Notes: generated from the letters alone by a model not told the origin. Shown: positions 16,218 through 32,878, counted from the stretch's first letter. The stretch is 46,907 nucleotides of DNA from a virus (IMGVR_UViG_2651869724_000014); one strand, 5' to 3'. A program made the numbers and translations.

Positions 16218-16307
16218 TGGCGGAGAGAGGGGGATTTGAACCCCCGGTGGAGTTGCCCCCACTCCGGTTTTCGAGACCGGTCCGTTCAGCCGCTCCGGCA
16301 TCTCTCC
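16218..16307 (-). tRNA. serU: tRNA-Ser (anticodon CGA)
   Basis: Reverse complement GGAGAGATGCCGGAGCGGCTGAACGGACCGGTCTCGAAAACCGGAGT...GGTTCAAATCCCCCTCTCTCCGCCA. 90 nt with a long variable arm. Confidence 0.95.
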
Positions 16308-17298: not shown

Positions 17299-17374
17299 TC
17301 CTCTGTAGTTCAGTCGGTAGAACGGCGGACTGTTAATCCGTATGTCACTGGTTCGAGTCCAGTCAGAGGAGCCA
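17299..17374 (+). tRNA. asnT: tRNA-Asn (anticodon GTT)
   Basis: TCCTCTGTAGTTCAGTCGGTAGAACGGCGGACTGTTAATCCGTATGTCACTGGTTCGAGTCCAGTCAGAGGAGCCA, 76 nt. Confidence 0.95.
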
Positions 17375-18888: not shown

Positions 18889-19605
18889 CTAAATCGCTAA
18901 CAGTTCTGTTTTCCAGTATTCACTACCACTTTTATCACAGACATGTGAATATAATATCCTATCCATAATCCTAACAATTTCTTTAACATTATTTAGCTTA
19001 TCAATAACAGTATCTTTTGAAAGATTAATTGAAGAATATGAATGGGCTAACTCCGTGCGGCTATCAGAGAAAGACTGGAGCATGAACTCATAATCTTTTT
19101 TACCTTTCGCAGTCATTGCTTTTAATATATCTTTGATACCAAATCTATTAAAAAGAAGTTTGATATTTTTTTTGGAAGGATATTTTTTATCCATTATCAG
19201 CTGTTTTGGGACAATAACAGGCTTTACAGGAGAATTAGGTGACGATAACGCCTGAAGTTTATCCTTACACTTATTTAAGTCACTCATCATTATTGACTCA
19301 GAACCATGAGAAACGTAATTTATAAAATTTTTCTCTTGGTTTTTGAATAAAGAAAACAAGATAATTTCATCAGGTAGATGCGAAAGGCATCCGTTATTTT
19401 GGTTCAGCATGTCAATCCAATCTTCCAAAACATCTTTAATATAATCTTCGAATGCAGCAGAAACTCGAAATATCGCGTTATTATAAACACTATGTATAAT
19501 ATCTGTTCTTAATTCTTTTATTTTTGAAACATAACGAACCTGTTCAAGCAAATTGGAATGAATCTGCTCGAATTGTTTTCTAGATGCGCTTTTAATATAT
19601 GCCAT
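18889..19605 (-). CDS. HEPN-type (RiboL-PSP / MAE_28990-like) putative RNase
   Basis: Predicted helical 238-aa protein with an R-x4-H motif (RTELAH) near the C-terminus. Start overlaps the DUF262 stop (TGATG). Confidence 0.7.
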   Translation of the reverse strand: MAYIKSASRKQFEQIHSNLLEQVRYVSKIKELRTDIIHSVYNNAIFRVSAAFEDYIKDVLEDWIDMLNQNNGCLSHLPDEIILFSLFKNQEKNFINYVSHGSESIMMSDLNKCKDKLQALSSPNSPVKPVIVPKQLIMDKKYPSKKNIKLLFNRFGIKDILKAMTAKGKKDYEFMLQSFSDSRTELAHSYSSINLSKDTVIDKLNNVKEIVRIMDRILYSHVCDKSGSEYWKTELLAI

Positions 19606-20720
19606 CAGTTGAAATACCGTTCAATGAAATTTTTCATTGTGCTAATACGATAATGAACCGATTGCGTCGCCGAAGTGCCAGAAGTAATCGACTCATTAAA
19701 ACGCTCCTCTGATGTTATTCTTTGAAACTCTATTAAGAAATCCTTAAGTTTTGTTGCATCAAGTTCGTTTATCATATCCTGATTAAATTTTGATACCATA
19801 AACCCGACAATTAGAGCATCAAATAAAGCAGAATTGAAATTTCTTACTTGAGGCTCTAAGTTTTCATTTAGAATTCTAAATGCTTTTTTACCAAACAATT
19901 TATTAATACAGTTTAATGCACCAAGAAATCTACTACGCCACTCCAAGGCAACATCAGGTTCAATATTTTGTTTTTCAGAACTAAAATCATTAAGGAATTT
20001 CTTTAATGGTTTTTTATATGGTGTCACAGAATATGAAAGTGCGAATGCTCTCAATATGAGTTCATTATTCTTCATTCGTGTGTCATTTTTAATTCCTGTT
20101 AAGTCTCTCCATACTTTCTCCTCACTTATTTCGTCAATCATAGTAAATAATGGACCATGATAAACTCCATGACGTACCTCCTGAGGATTTAATTGTACTG
20201 CACCTGTATTTATTCTTTCAAAAACATCAATTTTAATTTGAGGGTGAGTTTCTTTTAATATGGTTATGCATCTCAATGTGCGATTTAAAATATGCCTACG
20301 GAATCTCGCGTCCAGTGATGAAAACGAATTCCCCTCCAATTCTGGATATGCTGTCAATCCCTGTAATTCAAAACCATCCTCAATAAATAGTTTAATTGAA
20401 GTCAACCGTTGATTACCATCAATAACAGATAAACTCTCATCTTTCTCTTGGTTTAAATAAATAACAGGGATAGGACACTGGATTATTAAAGACTCAATTA
20501 ATCTTGATGCCTGCCCTCTACTCCAAACATATTTCCTTTGAAAATCAGGAATAAACACAGTACCATTTTTCAAATAGTCGACGAGTGTTGATATTGAAAA
20601 ATCGTAAGTCTCGGTATGCAATCGACGCTGCTCAGGGGGAATATCAACGATAGAAATATCATCATCATCAAATATTGGGAAAAGTTTATCCGCAAGTTTT
20701 TTGGCATCATTAACAGACAT
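19605..20720 (-). CDS. DUF262 (GmrSD N-terminal / ParB-like) protein
   Basis: IPDFQRKYVWSRGQASRLIESLIIQCPIPVIYL...VIDGNQRLTSI are the DUF262 signature blocks. No recognisable DUF1524/HNH half. Confidence 0.85.
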   Translation of the reverse strand: MSVNDAKKLADKLFPIFDDDDISIVDIPPEQRRLHTETYDFSISTLVDYLKNGTVFIPDFQRKYVWSRGQASRLIESLIIQCPIPVIYLNQEKDESLSVIDGNQRLTSIKLFIEDGFELQGLTAYPELEGNSFSSLDARFRRHILNRTLRCITILKETHPQIKIDVFERINTGAVQLNPQEVRHGVYHGPLFTMIDEISEEKVWRDLTGIKNDTRMKNNELILRAFALSYSVTPYKKPLKKFLNDFSSEKQNIEPDVALEWRSRFLGALNCINKLFGKKAFRILNENLEPQVRNFNSALFDALIVGFMVSKFNQDMINELDATKLKDFLIEFQRITSEERFNESITSGTSATQSVHYRISTMKNFIERYFN

Positions 20721-20921: not shown

Positions 20922-22199
20922 ATGTTAAAGAATACCAAGGAATGTGCCAACTCTGTATCAAGTGTGACGAATGCCATTGAAAGGGCCAAGGAACTATCAG
21001 GACTCGTCGTATCACGATTAAAATCCGAAGGCATGTATGCGGTTGGTAATGTGGATGGTTTATACCTTCGCATCCGAAATCAGTCCCGTGCATGGGTTCT
21101 TTGCGTGGCTATGGGAACCCGAATCAACAATCTCGGTAGAACAGTTCCAAGACGTTTGAATATGGGGCTTGGCCCTTACCCGGAAGTCTCCTTAGCCGAA
21201 GCGCGTGACAAAGCGCGTGAGCTACGTAAACAAATCCGTAATGGTATTAATCCCCTTCAAGAAAAACACGAACAAAAAGCCCGGCAGGAAATACTGGCCC
21301 GGAAGAAAAAGACCTTTGCCGAATGTTGTGAAGAAGTGCTGGAGGTCAAAGACAGTGAGATGAAGAACAAAAAACATCTCGCGCAATGGCGTTCCACACT
21401 GGAAACCTATGCCTACCCTTTCATTGGCAAAAAGGCCGTTAGTGAAATCACCAAAGTCGATCTTCTGGCAATACTGGAACCTATCTGGTTAACCAAGAAT
21501 GAAACTGCCAGTCGTCTACGTGGACGTATTGAAACAGTGATCGATTACGCCAAGGCCAAAGAATACTTTGAAGGTGATAATCCTGCCGCATGGAAAGGTA
21601 TGCTGAAACCTCTGTTGCCTCAGCCAAGTAAAGTTCAGATCACCAAACACCATGCGGCCCTTCCCTATAACCAGATCGGCTCTTTTATGAAAGAACTACG
21701 TGAACGAAGCGGCGTTTCTCCTCGTGCGCTTGAGTTTGCCATACTGACCGCAGCACGCTCAGGTGAAATTCGTGGTGCCGAGTGGTCAGAGATCGATCTT
21801 GAAGGTAAAACGTGGACCATACCTGCAAGCCGAATGAAAGCAGCGAAGGAGCATCGAGTTCCTCTGTCTGATGCTGCTGTTGCCTTGTTAAAAGCTTTAC
21901 CACGCTTTAAGGGTATCAGTTTTGTATTCCCTGCCACTCGGAAGGGACAACTCTCGGATACGGCTTTACTGGCAGTCCTAAAGCGAATGGGATATACCGA
22001 TTTAACACAGCATGGGTTTAGATCGACATTCCGTGATTGGGCTGGTGAAACGACCAACTATCCGCGTGAGGTAATTGAACATGCGTTAGCTCACCAGTTG
22101 GCAGATAAGGCAGAGGCTGCGTATCAACGTGGGACGTTATGGCCTAAGCGGGTGGCGTTGATGGATGAGTGGTCGGGGTTTTGTCTTGCCAATGTTTAG
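20922..22199 (+). CDS. Second tyrosine integrase (P4/CP4-57-like)
   Basis: GLGPYPEVSLAEARDKARELRKQIRNGINP arm/SAM-like region. HGFRSTFRDW...AYQRG catalytic end. Confidence 0.85.
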   Translation: MLKNTKECANSVSSVTNAIERAKELSGLVVSRLKSEGMYAVGNVDGLYLRIRNQSRAWVLCVAMGTRINNLGRTVPRRLNMGLGPYPEVSLAEARDKARELRKQIRNGINPLQEKHEQKARQEILARKKKTFAECCEEVLEVKDSEMKNKKHLAQWRSTLETYAYPFIGKKAVSEITKVDLLAILEPIWLTKNETASRLRGRIETVIDYAKAKEYFEGDNPAAWKGMLKPLLPQPSKVQITKHHAALPYNQIGSFMKELRERSGVSPRALEFAILTAARSGEIRGAEWSEIDLEGKTWTIPASRMKAAKEHRVPLSDAAVALLKALPRFKGISFVFPATRKGQLSDTALLAVLKRMGYTDLTQHGFRSTFRDWAGETTNYPREVIEHALAHQLADKAEAAYQRGTLWPKRVALMDEWSGFCLANV

Positions 22200-22209
22200 C
22201 GGTCTGATT

Positions 22210-22503
22210 GAAAACATGATCAACAAGGCGCTGCGTAAGATGGGCTATGACACCACGCAGGATATTTGCGGTCATGGTTTCCGCACACTGGCATGTAGTG
22301 CTCTGATTGAATCAGGGCTATGGTCTGAAGATGCGGTGGAACTCCAGATGAACCACAAGGAAAGCAACAGTGTTCGTGCTGCCTATACACATAAGGCCAA
22401 ACATCTTGAGCAGCGAAGGTTGATGCTACAATGGTAGGCAGATTTTCTTGATGCTAACTGGGATGGGATGGTCAGGCCGTTTGAGTTTGCTCAGAAACAA
22501 TAA
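22210..22503 (+). pseudogene. Displaced 3' fragment of a P4-type integrase gene (paralogous to 18535-18822)
   Basis: Aligns base-for-base with the 3' end of the first integrase: about 20-odd substitutions and one 6-nt indel by hand count. TGG to TAG at 22435-22437. Confidence 0.85.
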
Positions 22504-22573: not shown

Positions 22574-22825
22574 TCACTTACGCCCTTTGTTTGATTGTGC
22601 CAAAACAGAGGCTGCAAGTTGCTTCGTTAACTTGCTGGAACGTGGATTATCAAGAGCTGATGATGCCTTATGCTCCATTTGCCCACTTGTCTGGTTTGAT
22701 GTCCCACGTTGCGAAAGCGCAGAACCAGCGAGGCTTTTCTGGATGGCAGAAGCATTAGGATTAGCCAGCGTTTTTGCAGCAGTAGAAGCCACATTTTCAG
22801 AAGTCTGTTTTACGTTTTTACTCAT
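22574..22825 (-). CDS. Hypothetical 83-aa Ala/Ser/Gln-rich protein
   Basis: ORF from MSKNVKQTSENV... followed by a terminator. No family recognised. Confidence 0.55.
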   Translation of the reverse strand: MSKNVKQTSENVASTAAKTLANPNASAIQKSLAGSALSQRGTSNQTSGQMEHKASSALDNPRSSKLTKQLAASVLAQSNKGRK

Positions 22826-23191
22826 GAAACGAATCCCCAAGAAGTTATGAATATCCCTTATGTAGTACTTACATTCCTAAAGAAACACCACATACAGTGG
22901 CATCAACAGATTTTATAATCCTTTGTTTTCCTAAAAACAAGTCTAAAACTGTATAAAAACACAGTTATGATATAGTCTATTGTTTTTAATGAATAAAAAT
23001 AACTAATCGCGTTTAACGAAGAGAAACTAAAAGTTAGCCACTGCTATGAAAAAGAGCTCCTGACAGCAAATAACTTTCAGAAATCTATAGCGATCTTCAT
23101 CTTGAGAGAGGCTTGTACTTAACCCGCAAAAGGTATAGGTATATAATTATTATCAGCTTATACCAAATGGCTATCAATGATAGGAATAAAA

Positions 23192-24097
23192 ATGATTTTA
23201 GTTATAACATCTAGCTTTGATAAAACAATTGATTACATAGTAAAAAAACATAGCATTAACAATTTTTACAGGTTAGATGTTGATAATTTCTCTGAATATA
23301 AATTTTCTTACACTAAAAAAGGATTCAGTATTGTTAATAAAAATAATAATGAATTGCTCGAGAGTGAATGCAGATCCATCTATTATAGAAAACCAACTCC
23401 TGAGAATATTATCAATAAAATTGATTCAAAATATCATAATCATTGCTTTCGAGAAGTATTCGCTTTTGTTGAAGGGATTGCTGAGTCGTTTACTGGAAAA
23501 TGCTTATCCAAGCCATCAATTATAAAAAGAGCAGATAACAAAGTATTGCAAGCAAAAACTGCAATTGATATTGGATTCACAATTCCTGATTTTATATTGA
23601 CAAATAATTTCGATTGTTTCAAAAACACTTTGACAATCAATAGCATTGTCAAACCGTTATCAAGTGGATTGATAGAAAATCAGAAAGAAAAGGAATTTGT
23701 TCAAACAAATATGGTTGACATGAATAAAAACACAGAAACATTAAAATATTGTCCAGCTTATTTTCAATCGTATACAAAAAAAGAATTCGAGGTGAGATCA
23801 ACATTCATAAATGGTAAAGATTATTCGGTAAAAATAATATCTAAAAATAAAATTGACTGGAGAAAAGACAATAACGAAATATTCTATTCAACAATAAAAA
23901 TGCCTGATACTATAAAAGAAAAATGTCTGAGGTATATGTCAGTCATGAATATTTCTTTTGGATGTTTTGATTTTATAGTTTTTGATGGTGAATGGTTCTT
24001 CTTAGAGATGAATGCAAATGGTCAATGGGCATGGCTAGAAAATGAAACGAATATTAATGTGTCAAGTGAGTTAGTGAGGTTTTTAAATGAAGTATAA
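23192..24097 (+). CDS. MvdC/MvdD-type ATP-grasp ligase (RiPP macrocyclase-like)
   Basis: Blocks MILVITSSFDKT, SIYYRK, RADNKVLQAKTAIDIGFTIPDF, IDWRKD and FGCFDFIVFDGEWFFLEMNANGQWAWLE parallel the microviridin-type ATP-grasp enzymes. AGGA RBS before the ATG at 23192 (the track ORF starts at 23177). Confidence 0.8.
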   Translation: MILVITSSFDKTIDYIVKKHSINNFYRLDVDNFSEYKFSYTKKGFSIVNKNNNELLESECRSIYYRKPTPENIINKIDSKYHNHCFREVFAFVEGIAESFTGKCLSKPSIIKRADNKVLQAKTAIDIGFTIPDFILTNNFDCFKNTLTINSIVKPLSSGLIENQKEKEFVQTNMVDMNKNTETLKYCPAYFQSYTKKEFEVRSTFINGKDYSVKIISKNKIDWRKDNNEIFYSTIKMPDTIKEKCLRYMSVMNISFGCFDFIVFDGEWFFLEMNANGQWAWLENETNINVSSELVRFLNEV

Positions 24098-24941
24098 TTT
24101 CATTTACTTTATTATAAAATTATTAAACTTTTCATTATTATTCCACACATCATTAGATGAGAATTTTGATACTATTGAAAAAAGAAATGTTATTAATTCC
24201 ACGTCATTAAGAGTATCTTTATTATGTTTTCCTGTGGGGAGTAAAATAATATATTTATTAACTTTCAATAAAAAATCAAACCGTATTTTGGATAAATCTA
24301 ACTTCCAGTTTTTTACGAGCATACACTATGATACACTTTGCCCAAGAATATCGGGCACAAAAATTGAAGAATATGTCATGGCGTATAGTCAATATATTAA
24401 ATCAATTCTACCTAAAAGAAGGAAGGAACAAGAAGATTTTTTAAAGCAGCGCCTTTCCGAAAATAACGATAGTTTATCTAATCTTCAAAGTAAGATAACA
24501 CATTATACTACTATCACTATTGCCCTCACAGGGGCAGTGGTTTATCTACAAACCATTCTACCATCCGCAAATACAAATTTTGCAATAAGATTTATTTCCT
24601 ATTATTTATTTTTTATATTGCTTGTTGATATAATTAATTTATTTCTTTTTCTAAGAAAAGGAATGATGGTAAGTAGTTTTTCTCAATCAAGTTTTAAATC
24701 ATTAAAATTTGATAACAGTAATTATGCCTTAACGAAGGCTATATATCGTGACTGGATAGCAAGAAAAGATGACGTCAGATATTTTGCAGGTATAGTTAGA
24801 AATGCCGAAAAATATCTATACAGATCGATTTTAGTTGGAATCACGCTATACATGTTTTCCATTTCACTGCAATATTATAGCGATAATCCAGTGAATGAAA
24901 TCATATTCACGCCGTCAGGCATGTTTTTAGCTGTAAATTAA
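24087..24941 (+). CDS. Multi-pass membrane protein of unknown function
   Basis: GAGG RBS and an 11-nt overlap with the ligase gene. Hydrophobic segments: TTITIALTGAVVYLQTIL, FISYYLFFILLVDIINLFLFL, SILVGITLYMFSISL. Confidence 0.6.
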   Translation: MKYNFIYFIIKLLNFSLLFHTSLDENFDTIEKRNVINSTSLRVSLLCFPVGSKIIYLLTFNKKSNRILDKSNFQFFTSIHYDTLCPRISGTKIEEYVMAYSQYIKSILPKRRKEQEDFLKQRLSENNDSLSNLQSKITHYTTITIALTGAVVYLQTILPSANTNFAIRFISYYLFFILLVDIINLFLFLRKGMMVSSFSQSSFKSLKFDNSNYALTKAIYRDWIARKDDVRYFAGIVRNAEKYLYRSILVGITLYMFSISLQYYSDNPVNEIIFTPSGMFLAVN

Positions 24942-24952
24942 AAGGATATAAT

Positions 24953-25297
24953 ATGAAACCGTATACTATGCTCTATAGTGAATCTTTCGAAATAAACGCA
25001 TCAACAATTTCAAGTAAAACAAACTCTACCGTAAAAACATTTACCACAGAACCTAATGATGAAGATTATCTCAACACTTGGACAACGCATACAAGAGTCA
25101 TAGAGAACCAAGATGAGGATTACAGTTTAGCCCCCAGCAACTGTGAAAGAAAATACGAAATATCTAATGAAAAGCAGTCTGCTATGGATACATTTTTTAC
25201 AGAATCTATTGAAAATAATGATGATGATTTTATAGTATGTAGAACATTTGTAACAAATGTCGTTGAATCAGGTGATGATGATTTCTATTTTAACTAA
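24953..25297 (+). CDS. 114-aa acidic protein with four T-[FW]-x-T...D-[DE]-D-[FY] repeats (candidate multi-core precursor)
   Basis: AAGGA RBS. Repeats: TFTTEPNDEDY, TWTTHTRVIENQDEDY, TFFTESIENNDDDF, TFVTNVVESGDDDF. Confidence 0.65.
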   Translation: MKPYTMLYSESFEINASTISSKTNSTVKTFTTEPNDEDYLNTWTTHTRVIENQDEDYSLAPSNCERKYEISNEKQSAMDTFFTESIENNDDDFIVCRTFVTNVVESGDDDFYFN

Positions 25298-28834: not shown

Positions 28835-30304
28835 ATGGCGATTTTCCATCTGGATTTTAAAATTGTGAAACGAAGCGAGGGCATGACTTCCGTTGCGAAA
28901 GCTGCCTACCATGCCCGTACACGTATTACAGATGATCGCATTGGCGAAACATTTGATTTCAGCCACAGAACAGATCTTCATGGTCATATTATATTAGCGC
29001 CCGTTTCCGCACCTGCTCATATTATTGAAAGCTCCTCAGCACTCTGGAATGAAGTTGAAAGAGTGGAACGCCAGAACAACGGTCAAACAGCCCGTTATTT
29101 TGATGTCGCTATTCCCGTAGAACTCAACAATGATGACAAGAAAAAATTGGTTGCCGAATACTGCCAGAAGAACTTTGTTGATAAAGGAATGATTGCTGAT
29201 ATCGCATTCCATGACTTAGACAGTAAGAACCCACACGCTCACGTCATGTTAACCCTGAAAACCATCGGGCCCGAAGGCTTCGGTAAAAAAGACAGAACTT
29301 GGAATGATAAGAAGATGGTTGTTCAGTGGCGTGAGTCGTGGGCCACGATGTCAAACAGCTACCTTGAAGCCGCAGGCAGTGAAGAACGTATCGATCACCG
29401 TTCTCTCAGAACTCAATGTGCTGATGCCCTTGCTCAGGCAGAAGAAGCATTCAGTGCTGAAGAGAAAGCATTCTGGCTTGCCAAAGCAACGGAAACAAAC
29501 CGCCCGGCAATGCAGCGTGTTCATCGTGCTAAATGGAATGATACCGAGTCTCAGGAACAACGAGCTGCTGAACAAGCTCAACGCGATCATCAAATTGAGG
29601 AAGCAAAGAAGGTCTACGCCACATTCAGTGAGCTACCACTGGAAATCGTTGTTGATGTTCGCTCTTACTCTGTTTACCAGCTTCCTGAACCGGAAGAGAT
29701 CGTTCTCCCTGACTACCCGGCAACAACAAAGCAGCAACCGATTCATGCAGAGTCAGAACCATACAGAAGACCAGCCGTAAAATCTTACCATGCCCCCAAT
29801 AAGGTCAGTAAAGTTGGTGCTGCAGCTAAGAAATCCCCTGTTCTGGTTGCACCTGAACCAAATAAATCCACTAAACTGAAAAACCCTTCTTCTCAAAACA
29901 CCAGAGCGATGAAGCGTGCTCCTGTGAGGAGTAGGAAACAGACCAAGCCCCGCCAGAATGGTTTGTTTAAACGTTTCACGCTACTGATAGTAGGATATAT
30001 AAGAGAGAAATTTATATGGGCCAGAATGAAACCCGATACCACTGATGCTGACCATGATAAGCGTATCGCAGAGAACTATGTCTATGATGAAGTGCTGGGT
30101 GTCAATGTTCCACGCTCAGAGTTTGAAAAACGTACCAAATTTAACGATAGTAACTATAAATTAACACCTAATGAGATCAAGCGTTTCCCAAGCCGTCCTA
30201 AGCGAGTTCAATTAGAGTCAGAGAGCGGTATGGATGTCCTCCCTAAAAATAATCAATTTAACTCGTCAAAAATAAACTTCGTCAAACCAAATTTTAGATC
30301 ATAA
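28835..30304 (+). CDS. MobA/MobL-family (MOBQ-type) relaxase
   Basis: MAIFHLDFKIVKRSEGMTSVAKAAYHARTRI (catalytic Tyr region) and FHDLDSKNPHAHVMLT (HxDx..PHxH metal site). Confidence 0.9.
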   Translation: MAIFHLDFKIVKRSEGMTSVAKAAYHARTRITDDRIGETFDFSHRTDLHGHIILAPVSAPAHIIESSSALWNEVERVERQNNGQTARYFDVAIPVELNNDDKKKLVAEYCQKNFVDKGMIADIAFHDLDSKNPHAHVMLTLKTIGPEGFGKKDRTWNDKKMVVQWRESWATMSNSYLEAAGSEERIDHRSLRTQCADALAQAEEAFSAEEKAFWLAKATETNRPAMQRVHRAKWNDTESQEQRAAEQAQRDHQIEEAKKVYATFSELPLEIVVDVRSYSVYQLPEPEEIVLPDYPATTKQQPIHAESEPYRRPAVKSYHAPNKVSKVGAAAKKSPVLVAPEPNKSTKLKNPSSQNTRAMKRAPVRSRKQTKPRQNGLFKRFTLLIVGYIREKFIWARMKPDTTDADHDKRIAENYVYDEVLGVNVPRSEFEKRTKFNDSNYKLTPNEIKRFPSRPKRVQLESESGMDVLPKNNQFNSSKINFVKPNFRS

Positions 30305-30412: not shown

Positions 30413-31933
30413 ATGATTAGTGAAATCACAACAAATGGCACTAAAATTAAACTAAGAAATAATAGTGCTAATGATATTAATATTTATGATATGGATTCTT
30501 TATCTTTACTTATTGGTATAAATGGTTCAGGGAAGACAAAATCCTTATGTAGCATAATTAACTATTTCTTTCCTAAAAATAACATGCAATTAACAGGCGA
30601 TTGTACAATATTAAACTCTAGCGGTGAAAGAATAGATCATACTGAAATTAGAAACTGGGGAGTTATATATTTCACCCCATTACCATTTAGACCAAAGTTG
30701 AATATTAGAGATAGTAGGTTTATTAACGCATCTCCAAGCTTGAATGGAAAAAATACTGTATTTGACCTTATCGAATACAAGGATTTAATATCTGACTTTG
30801 ATATTTATCCAAAAGTTGTTGCCATGAAGATGACAAACATTAGCAAAGTTGCAAGATTAATACTTAATATCGCTTTAAATAATAAAGATCTTAATCAGAA
30901 CAGCATACTACTGAATCACGGTCTCCTTGATATTTTGTCATTACGTGCAAAAATTGATGATAATATAGATAATGACGATTCAGACACTATAAAATATAGT
31001 ACCAATAAAAATATTCAAGCAGAAATTGATTCTATTATGCAGCGTTGCTCCGCGCATCTGATTGATGAAATACTTCATCGCGCAGGTGAAGAAAAACTCT
31101 TTTCCATATTTAGCATAATAGATTGGGCAAGTACAAAAAAACAGTTCAGTGATAACGTAGTAATTCCATTATTAAACAAACACTTAAATTTAAACATCCG
31201 TTCAAATAGAAAACTCAGAGAGACTAAATTATATTTAGAATGTGAAAGCAAAATAGATAGTTTACTTAATATTATAAAATATGAGGTAAAAAACCATGAA
31301 ATCATAAAGGATTCAAGACTTAATGAATCAACTTTAAGGTTAGAATTCGAAATAGACCCTTACGAAGGACAAAGGTTATTAACAAGATACAATTTGAATG
31401 ATATTTTTAAAATTGATTTTTCTGATATGAGTTCTGGGCAAATTGCTATTCTAGCTCAAATTGGCGCCATCTCTGACTCTATTACTAAACTGTCAGATAG
31501 AGGTATCAGATCAATACTACTATTAATAGATGAAGGGGACGCTTTTTTACATATCGATTGGCAAAGGAAATATATTTCTAATTTAAATAAAATGCTAGGC
31601 TCATTAAAAACATCTCTGGGCATAGATAATTTACAACTTATTCTAGCCTCGCACTCTCCATTGTTAGCCACAGACGTTCCCAAAGACTTTATAACTAGAC
31701 TACCAATTGAAAATGCTACGTTAAGTGGTTTTGCATCTCCTCTTTATATTTTACTAAATGAATCTTTTGGAACTAAAACCATTGGAGAATTTGCAACAAA
31801 TAAAATTGAAACCATCATCGACAAAATACCTAATAGAATACTGACTGAAAAAGATTATTACCTTATAAATAATATAGACAACCCTCTAATAAAAAGCGAA
31901 ATCGAACGCTTAATTATGCAGCATAAGGATTGA
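30413..31933 (+). CDS. Septu PtuA-like ABC/AAA_15-type ATPase
   Basis: Walker A GINGSGKT, signature MSSGQ, Walker B LLLIDEGDAFLH and an H-loop ASHSP. Confidence 0.8.
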   Translation: MISEITTNGTKIKLRNNSANDINIYDMDSLSLLIGINGSGKTKSLCSIINYFFPKNNMQLTGDCTILNSSGERIDHTEIRNWGVIYFTPLPFRPKLNIRDSRFINASPSLNGKNTVFDLIEYKDLISDFDIYPKVVAMKMTNISKVARLILNIALNNKDLNQNSILLNHGLLDILSLRAKIDDNIDNDDSDTIKYSTNKNIQAEIDSIMQRCSAHLIDEILHRAGEEKLFSIFSIIDWASTKKQFSDNVVIPLLNKHLNLNIRSNRKLRETKLYLECESKIDSLLNIIKYEVKNHEIIKDSRLNESTLRLEFEIDPYEGQRLLTRYNLNDIFKIDFSDMSSGQIAILAQIGAISDSITKLSDRGIRSILLLIDEGDAFLHIDWQRKYISNLNKMLGSLKTSLGIDNLQLILASHSPLLATDVPKDFITRLPIENATLSGFASPLYILLNESFGTKTIGEFATNKIETIIDKIPNRILTEKDYYLINNIDNPLIKSEIERLIMQHKD

Positions 31934-31945
31934 AGGTCTTCATAT

Positions 31946-32878
31946 ATGATTATTTCAATTAAAAACAACTGGGAAAAAGCAATAAAATTACATACACATT
32001 ATTTAAATAATTTGATATGCAACTTTTTAAATAAATCCATTCCTAGTTCTGAAGGACGAGACGAAGCTAAAAAATTTATTCTAGATGTGCATCACCTATT
32101 AATACTTGCCGGTAAACAAGATATATTGGAGAGTATTGATATATATAGAGAGTACAAACACAGATTGTCAATAACGCCGGATATATCGAAGCAATTCGAC
32201 AAAGAAATAAGATCTATTTTTAATTACAATAAGTTTGTTAGGAAAACAGGATCATGGAATGCATATACTCTATGTAAAAAATCAATAAGCAGAACATGTC
32301 CGTATTGCAATCAAGCATATGCTTTTTCGATACAAAAAAAGAATCGCGGTTTTCGTCCTACATTAGATCATTTTTATAGTAAGGATGACTTTCCTCACCT
32401 TGCATTGGTAATTAACAATTTAATCCCAAGTTGTAGTTCATGTAACTCAAGCCTTAAAGGCACAATTGATTTCTTCGCAAATGAACATTTAAACCCACTG
32501 TGGGATGATGAAGTTATAAATTTCGTTTTAACTCATGAGGATGGTGTTTTAACATTAATAGACGGAATGATTTCATCACCAGAAAAAATAAAAATAAACA
32601 TATCTTACGATACTACAAATATTTCAATTAAAAACACAGTAAATACTTTTTTGATAAACGAAAGATATCAAGAAATGACAATAGAAGCAATAGAATTTGC
32701 AACTGCCAAATTAAATCTTGAATATGCCGTATCTACTGGAATATCATATTTCAAAAATAACTCAGAAAGTAGTATATTAAGATTTGACAAAAGAGAATAT
32801 AAAAAATATTTGCTCGGTAAATTATATTTAGATATATATAATAAAATGCCAAATGCAAATATAGTTAACACTCGTTAA
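31946..32878 (+). CDS. Septu PtuB-like HNH nuclease
   Basis: CPYCNQAY...LDHFYSKDDFPHLALVINNLIPSCSSCNSSLKG. 13 nt after the ATPase gene. Confidence 0.75.
   Translation: MIISIKNNWEKAIKLHTHYLNNLICNFLNKSIPSSEGRDEAKKFILDVHHLLILAGKQDILESIDIYREYKHRLSITPDISKQFDKEIRSIFNYNKFVRKTGSWNAYTLCKKSISRTCPYCNQAYAFSIQKKNRGFRPTLDHFYSKDDFPHLALVINNLIPSCSSCNSSLKGTIDFFANEHLNPLWDDEVINFVLTHEDGVLTLIDGMISSPEKIKINISYDTTNISIKNTVNTFLINERYQEMTIEAIEFATAKLNLEYAVSTGISYFKNNSESSILRFDKREYKKYLLGKLYLDIYNKMPNANIVNTR

Follow-up and report, generated by a model that had tools for sequence, protein, structure and literature searches.

Thuringinin is a group 3 graspetide of Bacillus thuringiensis serovar huazhongensis, whose cluster encodes the precursor TgnA, the ligase TgnB and a membrane protein. 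The product is trivalent, with two esters in each repeat (PMC12291112). A membrane protein family designated 'cluster 18' is found specifically at thuringinin loci, most of which are without known transporters, and groups 3, 5 and 6 have a leader in common (PMC8939145). As a general rule, the first 30 residues of a graspetide precursor include a Phhx(1,2)h leader motif. In plesiocin (PsnA2/PsnB, group 2), which is tetravalent, a single ATP-grasp enzyme makes two Thr-to-acid esters in each TTxxxxEE core, with Glu residues as acceptors, and the leader motif is LFIEDL. Microviridins (group 1; MdnA-E / MvdA-F) have a single TxKxPSDx(D/E)(D/E) core that receives two esters and one amide, and their leader-dependent biosynthesis is encoded by clusters with two ligases, an acetyltransferase and an ABC transporter/peptidase. 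A reference cited by PMC8939145 describes in its title the ABC transporter MdnE, a microviridin membrane protein, as a scaffold.

The E. coli locus analyzed here is, with high probability, a graspetide biosynthetic cassette of group 3 (thuringinin type) that an integrative mobilizable island carries as cargo. It is already known, both from published graspetide catalogues and from the PGAP annotation, which assigns its ligase to the MvdC/MvdD family, and it adds little as a discovery. Table S1 of Makarova et al. 2022 (PMC8939145) lists the ligase of O127:H6 E2348/69 and dozens of further E. coli ligases under Branch_Thuringinin / cluster13 / gr_03, the 'gr_03' label having been assigned by motif search, and flags the locus as at least 50% identical to the Iyer 2009 and Lee 2020 sequences. 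The novelty implied by the initial annotation of this DNA does not stand, since the locus was in that table.

Organization of the cassette

ORF calling on the window (the whole stretch of 46,907 nt that was analyzed) recovers three intact ORFs on the + strand, encoding the ATP-grasp ligase (23192..24097, 301 aa), a membrane protein (24087..24941, 284 aa) and the precursor (24953..25297, 114 aa), at the coordinates of the initial annotation. The ligase and membrane protein genes overlap by 11 nt, and the precursor gene starts 11 nt 3' of the membrane protein gene's stop. GC content is 0.285-0.292 across positions 23001-25000, compared with ~0.44-0.48 immediately upstream. The initial picture of three co-directional, tightly packed genes in very AT-rich DNA is confirmed in coordinates, strand, spacing and GC, as is the absence of an acetyltransferase or ABC gene from the cassette.

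Shine-Dalgarno-like sequences lie 5' of all three genes, among them AGGA 8 nt upstream of the ligase ATG at 23192 and AAGGA 7 nt upstream of the precursor ATG; an alternative ligase ATG at 23177 would give a protein of 306 aa. A promoter-like site (TTAACC-17-TATAAT; 23119..23147, + strand) ~45 nt upstream of the ligase start is a candidate operon promoter by virtue of a consensus match only (10/12 positions), and promoter-like sites show no enrichment across the region (22 found, 17.1 expected from shuffles). DNA at 28-29% GC is a typical target of H-NS, and the very low GC of the cassette suggests silencing by H-NS under laboratory conditions.

The ATP-grasp ligase

Family models, PDB relatives and homology to a B. 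thuringiensis protein identify the ligase as a putative TgnB-like ATP-grasp graspetide synthetase. It gives full-length matches to the RiPP ATP-grasp maturase models (TIGR04187, 2.7e-50; MvdD, TIGR04184, 5.6e-41; MvdC, TIGR04185, 7.2e-41) and scores above the gathering threshold for the Pfam MvdD pre-ATP-grasp domain (PF21068, 1.4e-08), while the RimK model is matched at only 1.2e-09. These scores place the enzyme within the RiPP ATP-grasp (MvdC/MvdD-type) clade and outside the RimK/Ddl type, in agreement with the initial annotation, whose quoted sequence blocks are present. The ligase is a divergent member of the family, because its scores are under the curated NCBIfam cut-offs (for TIGR04187, 171 bits compared with 350 required).

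All PDB relatives of the ligase are graspetide synthetases, with matches to MdnB (2.4e-31), MdnC (1e-22) and, as the weakest, PsnB (5.9e-05). The ATP-grasp motifs are intact (RADNK, 113-117; IVKPLS, 152-157; DWRK, 222-225; FDF, 259-261; LEMNANGQW, 271-279), and we predict a catalytically intact ATP-grasp macrocyclase.

The best plasmid-borne relative of the ligase is encoded on B. thuringiensis pHS18-2 (39.9% identity; all others ≤29%), and pairwise comparison of the two proteins gives 40% identity (E 1e-72). Among the sequences that were directly compared, this thuringinin-type ligase is by far the closest to the E. coli enzyme. The published tree and the identity to the pHS18-2 ligase together argue for placing the E. 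coli ligase in the thuringinin branch.

The precursor: leader and cores

The protein encoded at 24953..25297 (+ strand) has the features of a TgnA-like graspetide precursor, with a leader and five cores, of which four are intact and one is decayed. The precursor file published by Makarova et al. 2022 contains the identical sequence (E. coli K02), and the protein matches the B. thuringiensis precursor by BLASTP (8e-06). There was no significant Pfam or NCBIfam match, and a word-indexed database search for homologues recovered E. coli and Salmonella fragments only. Word-indexed searches perform poorly on short, low-complexity repeat proteins, and relatives of the precursor were taken from synteny and the published precursor file. 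As first described, the protein is strongly acidic and Lys-poor (net charge ~-15, 5 Lys).

We read the N-terminal KPYTMLYSE (aa 2-10; 24956..24982, + strand) as the leader recognition motif, matching RPYIAKYVE of TgnA. Its form, [KR]PYxxxYxE, occurs in 10 of 12 family members, TgnA included, and the sequence also fits the general leader rule given above. Seven enterobacterial precursors all share M1, K2, P3, Y4, M6, Y8, S9 and E10. The E. coli precursor has no visible leader-cleavage motif and contains neither GG nor a 'GPD' of the TgnA pre-core kind.

The cores are defined by the fixed-spacing motif T-x-x-T-x-x-x-E-x-x-D-x-D, which was derived from TgnA and not from Lee et al.'s own definition. 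The precursor has four strict matches (aa 26, 44, 80 and 98), and not one of 200,000 shuffles of it has two or more. The motif is found three times in TgnA and 3-5 times per member among 12 family members, including TgnA. Strict matches on the + strand are core 1 (TVKTFTTEPNDED, aa 26-38, 25028..25066; T26, T29, E33, D36 and D38 invariant), core 2 (TTHTRVIENQDED, aa 44-56, 25082..25120; T44, T47, E51, D54 and D56 invariant), core 3 (TFFTESIENNDDD, aa 80-92, 25190..25228; T80, T83, E87, N88, D90 and D92 invariant) and core 4 (TFVTNVVESGDDD, aa 98-110, 25244..25282; T98, T101, E105 and D108 invariant). Core 3 is nearly superimposable on core 1 of TgnA, TIVTETIENADPD. Alignment also identifies a decayed core relic (SNCERKYEISNEK, aa 62-74; 25136..25174, + strand), which aligns with the intact middle core of Serratia (TFETREIENSDQN) and Dickeya (TIETREIESSDQD). 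Across the seven enterobacterial precursors, the invariant columns fall on the leader and on the T/T/E/D/D positions.

The four repeat strings of the initial annotation are found exactly where it put them (nt 25037-25285), but the variable-gap motif used to describe them hides the constant spacing T..T...E..D.D, and cores 1 and 2 begin three and two residues, respectively, before the strings. Its proposal of a multi-core graspetide precursor is borne out by sequence, motif and leader, and we assign the 114-aa protein, on these features, as a RiPP precursor of the multi-core graspetide type.

The membrane protein

Homology to the B. thuringiensis cluster protein, together with hydropathy, places the 284-aa product of the second gene (24087..24941, + strand) in the membrane protein family of thuringinin loci. 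The two proteins match by BLASTP (2e-07 across 254 aa) and by hhalign (97.4%, E 1e-11, 241 columns). This homology was seen only in pairwise and profile comparisons and is too weak for plasmid-wide tblastn, which found no match among plasmids at E≤1e-3. Relatives of the E. coli protein comprise 189 cluster representatives at E≤1e-3, and neither Pfam nor NCBIfam gave a significant match. One protein, P0129, fuses the ligase and membrane domains in a single chain.

Hydropathy reveals two clear hydrophobic segments (143-161 and 169-188), with weaker ones at 243-261 and 5-23; the initial count of three or more long hydrophobic helices holds approximately, two being clear and the others weaker. Transmembrane segments are predicted at ~143-161, 169-188 and 243-261, and the K/R-rich stretches 24-142 and 190-245 probably face the cytoplasm. 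The AF2 model has a mean pLDDT of 62, falls below 50 in the N-terminal 80 residues and is helical across residues 90-264. A Foldseek search of this model against the PDB gave no usable fold (best E 0.048, TM ~0.2). With ~3 transmembrane segments and no solved-structure match, the protein bears little resemblance to a classical transporter.

Comparison with thuringinin, plesiocin and microviridin

We compared the cassette with TgnA itself and with the cluster on the B. thuringiensis plasmid pHS18-2, which is near-identical to that of thuringinin. The pHS18-2 cluster has the identical gene order (ligase - membrane protein - precursor), and its three products are all homologous to those of E. coli. 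Thuringinin and E. coli precursors have in common the leader form and a tandemly repeated core of fixed spacing, and both clusters are without a protease or ABC exporter. The gene order and membrane partner, initially regarded as atypical, recur in this thuringinin-type cluster; because the homologous B. thuringiensis cluster shares the architecture, the membrane partner and the missing protease and ABC exporter can be considered canonical for group 3. The core, leader and membrane protein features of group 3 are all present in the E. coli cassette, with the 'cluster 18' label applied by homology only.

The two systems differ in several respects. The E. coli precursor has four intact cores and one relic, TgnA has three cores, and the pHS18-2 precursor has four copies, three strict and one variant. 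The first core is preceded by 25 residues in E. coli and by ~47 in thuringinin, and the 'GPD/GPE' linker that precedes thuringinin cores is absent from the E. coli precursor. The E. coli membrane protein (284 aa) is without the C-terminal extension of ~80 aa present in the Bacillus protein (361 aa). Lastly, the E. coli cluster belongs to a chromosomal integrative island of a Gram-negative host, whereas the Bacillus cluster is on a plasmid.

Plesiocin is likewise multi-core, and its use of a single enzyme for two esters per core offers an analogy for how the E. coli cassette may work. Its core and leader, however, differ from the T..T...E..D.D cores and KPYxxxYxE leader of the E. coli precursor. 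TTxxxxEE is absent from the 114-aa protein, and the sole TTxxxxED in it, within core 1 (TTEPNDED), is not conserved, Brenneria having TIESDDND at that place. Membership in the plesiocin type was rejected on the wrong core, the KPY-type leader and the position of PsnB as the most distant PDB relative (5.9e-05); the 'plesiocin-like' label of the initial annotation gives way to a conserved core of thuringinin (group 3) type. By analogy, the E. coli ligase would have its ATP-grasp fold and chemistry in common with the microviridin enzymes, and the cassette would be similarly leader-dependent. Microviridin-type membership was also rejected: the E. coli precursor has no such core, and the cassette has one ligase where microviridin clusters have two, with no acetyltransferase and no ABC transporter/peptidase.

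Proposed biosynthesis

We base the following scheme on findings established for MdnC, PsnB and TgnB. Docking of the leader on the ligase would activate the enzyme. With ATP, the ligase would phosphorylate Asp/Glu side-chain carboxylates in each core, and attack of a Thr hydroxyl on the acyl phosphate would then form omega-ester (macrolactone) bridges. Extrapolating from the two esters per repeat of thuringinin, the E. coli product is predicted to be a knotted peptide that carries ~8 esters (-144 Da) and forms a string of four small bicyclic hairpins. The membrane protein is predicted to have three transmembrane segments and to lie largely on the cytoplasmic side. It may tether the ligase and the precursor to the membrane, assist export, or do both. 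A leader peptidase, if there is one, might be encoded elsewhere. By analogy, protease inhibition by a multivalent product is the most likely activity, because every characterized graspetide is a protease inhibitor (PMC8939145). The literature searched contained no report characterizing the E. coli product, nor any graspetide from E. coli.

Distribution, island context and alternative readings

Copies of the cassette with at least 99% identity occur in 92 complete genomes, and the E2348/69 locus is 99.8% identical to that of the window. A check suggested by the initial annotation, namely whether the Thr/Asp repeat and the three-gene synteny persist in homologous loci, found both conserved in six further genera (Brenneria, Serratia, Klebsiella, Dickeya, Pectobacterium and Bacillus), in which the flanking genes differ while the cassette genes remain together. 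Across genera the ligases are ~60% identical and the precursors 43-48%. Because the leader and cross-linking residues are invariant despite this divergence, purifying selection is indicated. A megablast of the cassette against plasmids gave no match, and a scan of genome contigs with the ligase as query recovered one locus only, in Brenneria. In a megablast of window positions 1-24900, no complete genome had that stretch contiguous; the cassette finding is independent of this result.

Upstream of the cassette lie an intact tyrosine integrase (20922-22199, + strand, 425 aa; Pfam Arm-DNA-bind_3, Phage_int_M and Phage_integrase) and, between it and the cassette, a remnant of a second integrase (22165-22437, + strand) comprising 90 aa from the C-terminus, which covers positions 110-170 only of the Phage_integrase profile. 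The layout of integrase, remnant and cassette in Brenneria matches that in E. coli, and each of the other genera sampled has an integrase directly upstream of its cassette. No other cargo comes between the island integrase and the cassette in any enterobacterial locus sampled. HEPN and DUF262 genes are located upstream of the cassette in E. coli. Its immediate downstream neighbors in Serratia and Klebsiella are SIR2 and HerA, and it lies next to a YafO toxin-antitoxin pair and GmrSD in Dickeya and to a PAAR/pyocin-S toxin in Pectobacterium.

This first-cargo position, the SIR2-HerA, HEPN, DUF262, GmrSD and pyocin neighbors, the missing exporter and peptidase, the P0129 fusion and the large predicted cytoplasmic domain of the membrane protein have led us to formulate a specific alternative for the enterobacterial cassettes, which we judge unlikely: that they are conflict modules of mobile elements, in which a cross-linked poly-acidic product stays in or at the cell and acts against phages or rival elements, and the membrane protein is a new kind of component for gating or for docking the ligase. 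Such a product might, as an example, block a phage or plasmid protease.

A broader alternative, that the cassette serves conflict or defense against phages, plasmids or competitors instead of making a conventional secreted natural product, strikes us as quite improbable. It would encompass inhibition of a phage maturation protease, a decoy or a DNA mimic, and could coexist with graspetide chemistry. The integrase-proximal location beside defense and toxin modules in the enterobacterial loci sampled is consistent with it, as are the net charge of the precursor (~-15) and the fact that an exporter or peptidase is never co-encoded, and phage protection by graspetides has been speculated upon by the authors of PMC11626197. 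However, integrase-proximal regions gather many unrelated accessory genes, so that the neighborhood is weak evidence, and the neighbors of the Bacillus cluster on its plasmid are a Cry toxin gene and an IS6 element, not a defense island. The acidic residues of the precursor sit exactly at the positions that define graspetide cores and form no DNA-like pattern, and PADLOC-DB 2.0 has no family that matches the ligase, membrane protein or precursor at E≤1, which gives no support to a reading as a known defense system.

It is very doubtful that the cassette is a passenger, silent or in decay, without current function in E. coli. Of the five ancestral cores one is decayed, the region is broken by an IS1 in strain MB98, and the neighboring integrase and relaxase of E2348/69 are pseudogenes. 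Table S1 also contains many truncated E. coli ligases (94-285 aa), some of which are assembly fragments while others may be the result of real decay, and the base composition would suit H-NS silencing. Against such decay, all three ORFs are intact in the window and have ribosome-binding sites, the catalytic motifs of the ligase are preserved, the near-identity of the cassette extends over the 92 complete genomes, and the cross-genus invariance of leader and cross-linking residues indicates purifying selection. That the ATP-grasp enzyme acts on something other than the acidic repeat protein is scarcely credible; nothing specific favors it other than that the substrate relation is drawn from adjacency and motifs alone, whereas the repeat protein has the leader and core motifs of the experimentally characterized thuringinin precursor and co-occurs with the ligase at every locus examined.

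Significance

Read as a group 3 graspetide cassette, the locus is a compact three-gene cluster that E. coli carries natively, among others in UPEC isolates and in E2348/69, the prototype EPEC strain. The cassette is a good experimental target, in that its regulation, export and biological role can be studied in their native setting in the most tractable host. The membrane protein family is of interest in its own right, with its 189 cluster representatives and no relative of solved structure. The consistent presence of defense and toxin modules beside the cassette on mobile islands raises the question of how the peptide benefits its carriers.

Organization of the cassette

Three ORFs, all on the + strand, occupy exactly the coordinates proposed in the initial annotation. 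They encode a 301-aa ATP-grasp ligase (23192-24097), a 284-aa membrane protein (24087-24941) whose gene overlaps that of the ligase by 11 nt, and a 114-aa precursor (24953-25297) that begins 11 nt past the stop of the membrane-protein gene. An in-frame ATG upstream of the ligase ORF, at 23177, would give a protein of 306 aa instead; Shine-Dalgarno-like sequences (AGGA, GAGG and AAGGA) are positioned 7-9 nt 5' of the respective start codons of the three genes, and this spacing favors 23192, the start also used by PGAP. A promoter-like site at 23119-23147 is a consensus match only. The GC content of the cassette is 28.5-29.2%, compared to ~44-48% directly upstream.

Ligase and precursor

The ligase matches the RiPP ATP-grasp maturase models TIGR04187 (E 2.7e-50), MvdD (E 5.6e-41) and MvdC (E 7.2e-41) over its full length, with E-values of 1.5e-23 for the grasp-with-spasm model and 1.2e-09 for RimK. 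All of these scores are under NCBI's curated cut-offs, which marks the ligase as divergent within the family. The Pfam MvdD pre-ATP-grasp domain is matched over the gathering score, and PGAP names the protein ‘MvdC/MvdD family ATP grasp protein’. Its PDB relatives are without exception graspetide synthetases (MdnB, 2.4e-31; CdnC, 7e-29; AMdnB, 9.2e-27; MdnC, 1e-22; PsnB, 5.9e-05), and the ATP-grasp motifs are complete (IVKPLS, DWRK, FDF, LEMNANGQW).

The initial annotation described four repeats in the precursor using a variable-gap motif; the four copies are present, and the motif can be replaced by the gap-free T-x-x-T-x-x-x-E-x-x-D-x-D, which occurs four times: TVKTFTTEPNDED (core 1, starting at aa 26), TTHTRVIENQDED (core 2, aa 44), TFFTESIENNDDD (core 3, aa 80) and TFVTNVVESGDDD (core 4, aa 98). 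Shuffling the protein 200,000 times never gave two or more matches. Precursors of Salmonella, Brenneria, Enterobacter, Shewanella (SO_4765), Yersinia, Vibrio, Clostridium and Bacillus vietnamensis have 3-5 copies, and TgnA, the precursor of the characterized graspetide thuringinin, has three (TIVTETIENADPD, TIHTFTVENNDTD and TRITKTLENIDPD). The N-terminal KPYTMLYSE corresponds to RPYIAKYVE of TgnA; the leader pattern [KR]PYxxxYxE is present in 10 of 12 members of the precursor family, and KPYTMLYSE also satisfies the general graspetide leader rule Phhx(1,2)h.

When seven enterobacterial precursors were aligned (only 43-48% identity outside E. coli and Salmonella), the columns that did not vary were those of the leader residues and of the T/T/E/D/D positions in every core, as would be expected if residues for recognition and cross-linking were kept by selection. 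Five cores are present in the Serratia and Dickeya precursors. What looks like a spacer separating core 2 from core 3 in E. coli and Salmonella (25136-25174, aa 62-74; SNCERKYEISNEK) aligns with intact middle cores of Serratia (TFETREIENSDQN) and Dickeya (TIETREIESSDQD), and is the relic of a fifth core that has decayed.

A thuringinin-type cluster

When the ligase was searched against plasmids (tblastn), B. thuringiensis pHS18-2 was by far the best match (39.9% identity, 2e-61), with all others at ≤29%. The pHS18-2 locus shares the gene order of the window: a ligase, then a membrane protein of 361 aa, then a precursor of 130 aa. Each product is homologous to its counterpart: the ligases (pairwise E 1e-72), the precursors (E 8e-06) and the membrane proteins, which are 25% identical along 254 co-linear residues (E 2e-07), with a profile comparison giving a probability of 97.4% (E 1e-11, 241 columns). 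The pHS18-2 ligase gene (L003 3674-4855) encodes ~110 aa of foreign sequence at the N-terminus, carries the annotation ‘PH domain-containing protein’ and adjoins an IS6 transposase; this copy of the cluster appears rearranged.

Makarova et al. described ‘cluster 18’, uncharacterized membrane proteins specific to thuringinin loci, and suggested a role in peptide transport since these loci mostly lack known peptide transport systems (PMC8939145). What was initially considered atypical, namely the order of the genes, the presence of a membrane partner and the lack of any protease, acetyltransferase or ABC exporter, is therefore the canonical group 3 layout. As judged from sequence, the cassette is correctly identified as encoding a multi-core graspetide, although of group 3 (thuringinin type) and not of the plesiocin type first proposed.

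The membrane protein

The membrane protein has no match in Pfam, NCBIfam or PADLOC. Orthologs are present in Salmonella, Brenneria, Klebsiella, Serratia, Pectobacterium and Dickeya, and a profile search recovered 189 cluster representatives. Most are 340-370 aa, as in the Bacillus form, indicating that the enterobacterial protein lacks a C-terminal extension. Hydropathy analysis places hydrophobic segments at 143-161, 169-188 and 243-261, with two less pronounced at 5-23 and 41-61, and a cytoplasmic location is probable for the K/R-rich regions 24-142 and 190-245. AlphaFold gave a model of medium-low confidence (mean pLDDT 62) that is helical over residues 90-264 (pLDDT 70-84) and has no meaningful neighbor in the PDB.

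A 548-aa protein from the representative library (P0129) joins an ATP-grasp maturase at 4-298 (TIGR04187, 4.1e-55), which is of the thuringinin branch, to the membrane-protein domain at 314-547. This supports a physical association of ligase and membrane protein; P0129 may be a natural fusion, implying that the two act as a complex, or else a frameshift artifact between overlapping genes. We infer a role for the membrane protein in membrane docking, scaffolding or export.

Genomic context

The cassette island adjoins a tRNA-Asn gene (17299-17374), with a tRNA-Ser(cga) gene ~1 kb upstream of it (16218-16307). The island border in E. coli O127:H6 strain E2348/69 is a tRNA-Asn beside yeeO, so the tRNA-Asn copy occupied by the island seems not to be the same one in the window's strain as in E2348/69. 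Window positions 1-24900 are contiguous in none of the complete genomes. Two integrase genes precede the cassette: one for a 425-aa tyrosine integrase (20922-22199), intact here but annotated in E2348/69 as a pair of pseudogene fragments, and another of which a C-terminal remnant is left (22165-22437). The E. coli window (20922-22437) and Brenneria (L002 4362-5893) share a complete tyrosine integrase, a ~90-98 aa C-terminal remnant of a second one and the cassette, a layout that suggests tandem island accretion followed by deletion. Between remnant and cassette is an 88-aa Ala/Ser/Lys-rich ORF (22574-22840, - strand; hypothetical in E2348/69), with a terminator-like hairpin just downstream of it (22566-22545).

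Conjugative type IV pilus genes (pilV, pilin), traD and a MobA/MobL relaxase lie downstream of the cassette. The relaxase (MobQ-type, 28835-30304, 489 aa, Pfam 5.4e-55) is intact, while that of E2348/69 carries an internal stop; with relaxase and integrase both intact, the window copy of the island may still be mobilizable.

In Brenneria, Serratia, Klebsiella, Dickeya and Pectobacterium the cassette is the first cargo after the integrase or integrase remnant, and the genes that follow vary: SIR2 and HerA in Serratia and Klebsiella, a PAAR/pyocin-S toxin in Pectobacterium, and a YafO toxin-antitoxin pair, PilV, TraD, MobA and GmrSD in Dickeya. With a constant trio and varying neighbors, the three genes behave as a self-contained unit on a family of integrative mobilizable elements. 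The association with conflict modules recurs consistently, but it says little about function, since cargo regions of this kind gather many accessory genes.

In both Serratia and Klebsiella the precursor gene is followed, after ~100 nt, by genes for a SIR2_2 protein and a HerA/DUF87 ATPase (L004/L005 8346-11415; L007 9346-12415); pairs of this type are known anti-phage systems. In the window, genes for a HEPN-domain protein (238 aa) and a DUF262 protein (371 aa) lie end to end with one base in common (18889-20720, - strand), in ~32% GC DNA between two integrase genes according to the E2348/69 annotation; this looks like a defense-type pair in a separate small island module. At 30413-32878, the gene for an AAA_21/AAA_15 ATPase (506 aa) precedes one for a 310-aa protein whose HNH endonuclease match is weak (E 5.2e-4, under the gathering score); the two resemble the ATPase and nuclease defense pairs of mobile elements.

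Previous cataloging and proposed function

As a prediction, the cassette is already on record. In Table S1 of Makarova et al. 2022 (PMC8939145), dozens of E. coli ATP-grasp proteins, 301 or 306 aa long, are placed in ‘Branch_Thuringinin’, one of them being ‘Escherichia_coli_O127_H6_E2348_69_GCA_000026545.1’. These entries carry a flag for at least 50% identity to sequences of Iyer et al. 2009 and Lee et al. 2020, and the precursor is put in ‘cluster13’, motif group ‘gr_03’. A 114-aa E. coli K02 sequence in the precursor file of that study is identical to the window precursor. With the locus in both files and the ligase named by PGAP, the novelty implied initially is not upheld. We found no report of the E. 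coli product being made or characterized in the literature searched, which excluded the primary group 3 papers. Among 5,426 complete E. coli genomes, 92 have the cassette at ≥99% identity, always on the chromosome. In E. coli MB98 (NZ_CP073926.1) the region is broken by an IS1 transposase, and Table S1 lists many truncated E. coli ligases (94-285 aa; PMC8939145), which hints at decay in some lineages.

The sequence evidence establishes a leader-plus-cores precursor, an intact thuringinin-branch graspetide synthetase and a conserved membrane partner. By analogy with the biochemistry of MdnC, PsnB and TgnB (the thuringinin ligase), leader binding would activate the ligase, ATP would phosphorylate Asp/Glu side chains, and the acyl phosphates would be attacked by Thr hydroxyls to form omega-esters; two esters per core, as in thuringinin, would place ~8 on the E. 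coli product. [quoted passage not shown] The locus is of low to moderate interest, which lies in the chemistry of its product in a tractable pathogen background, in the function of the membrane protein and in the integrase-proximal position beside defense modules.
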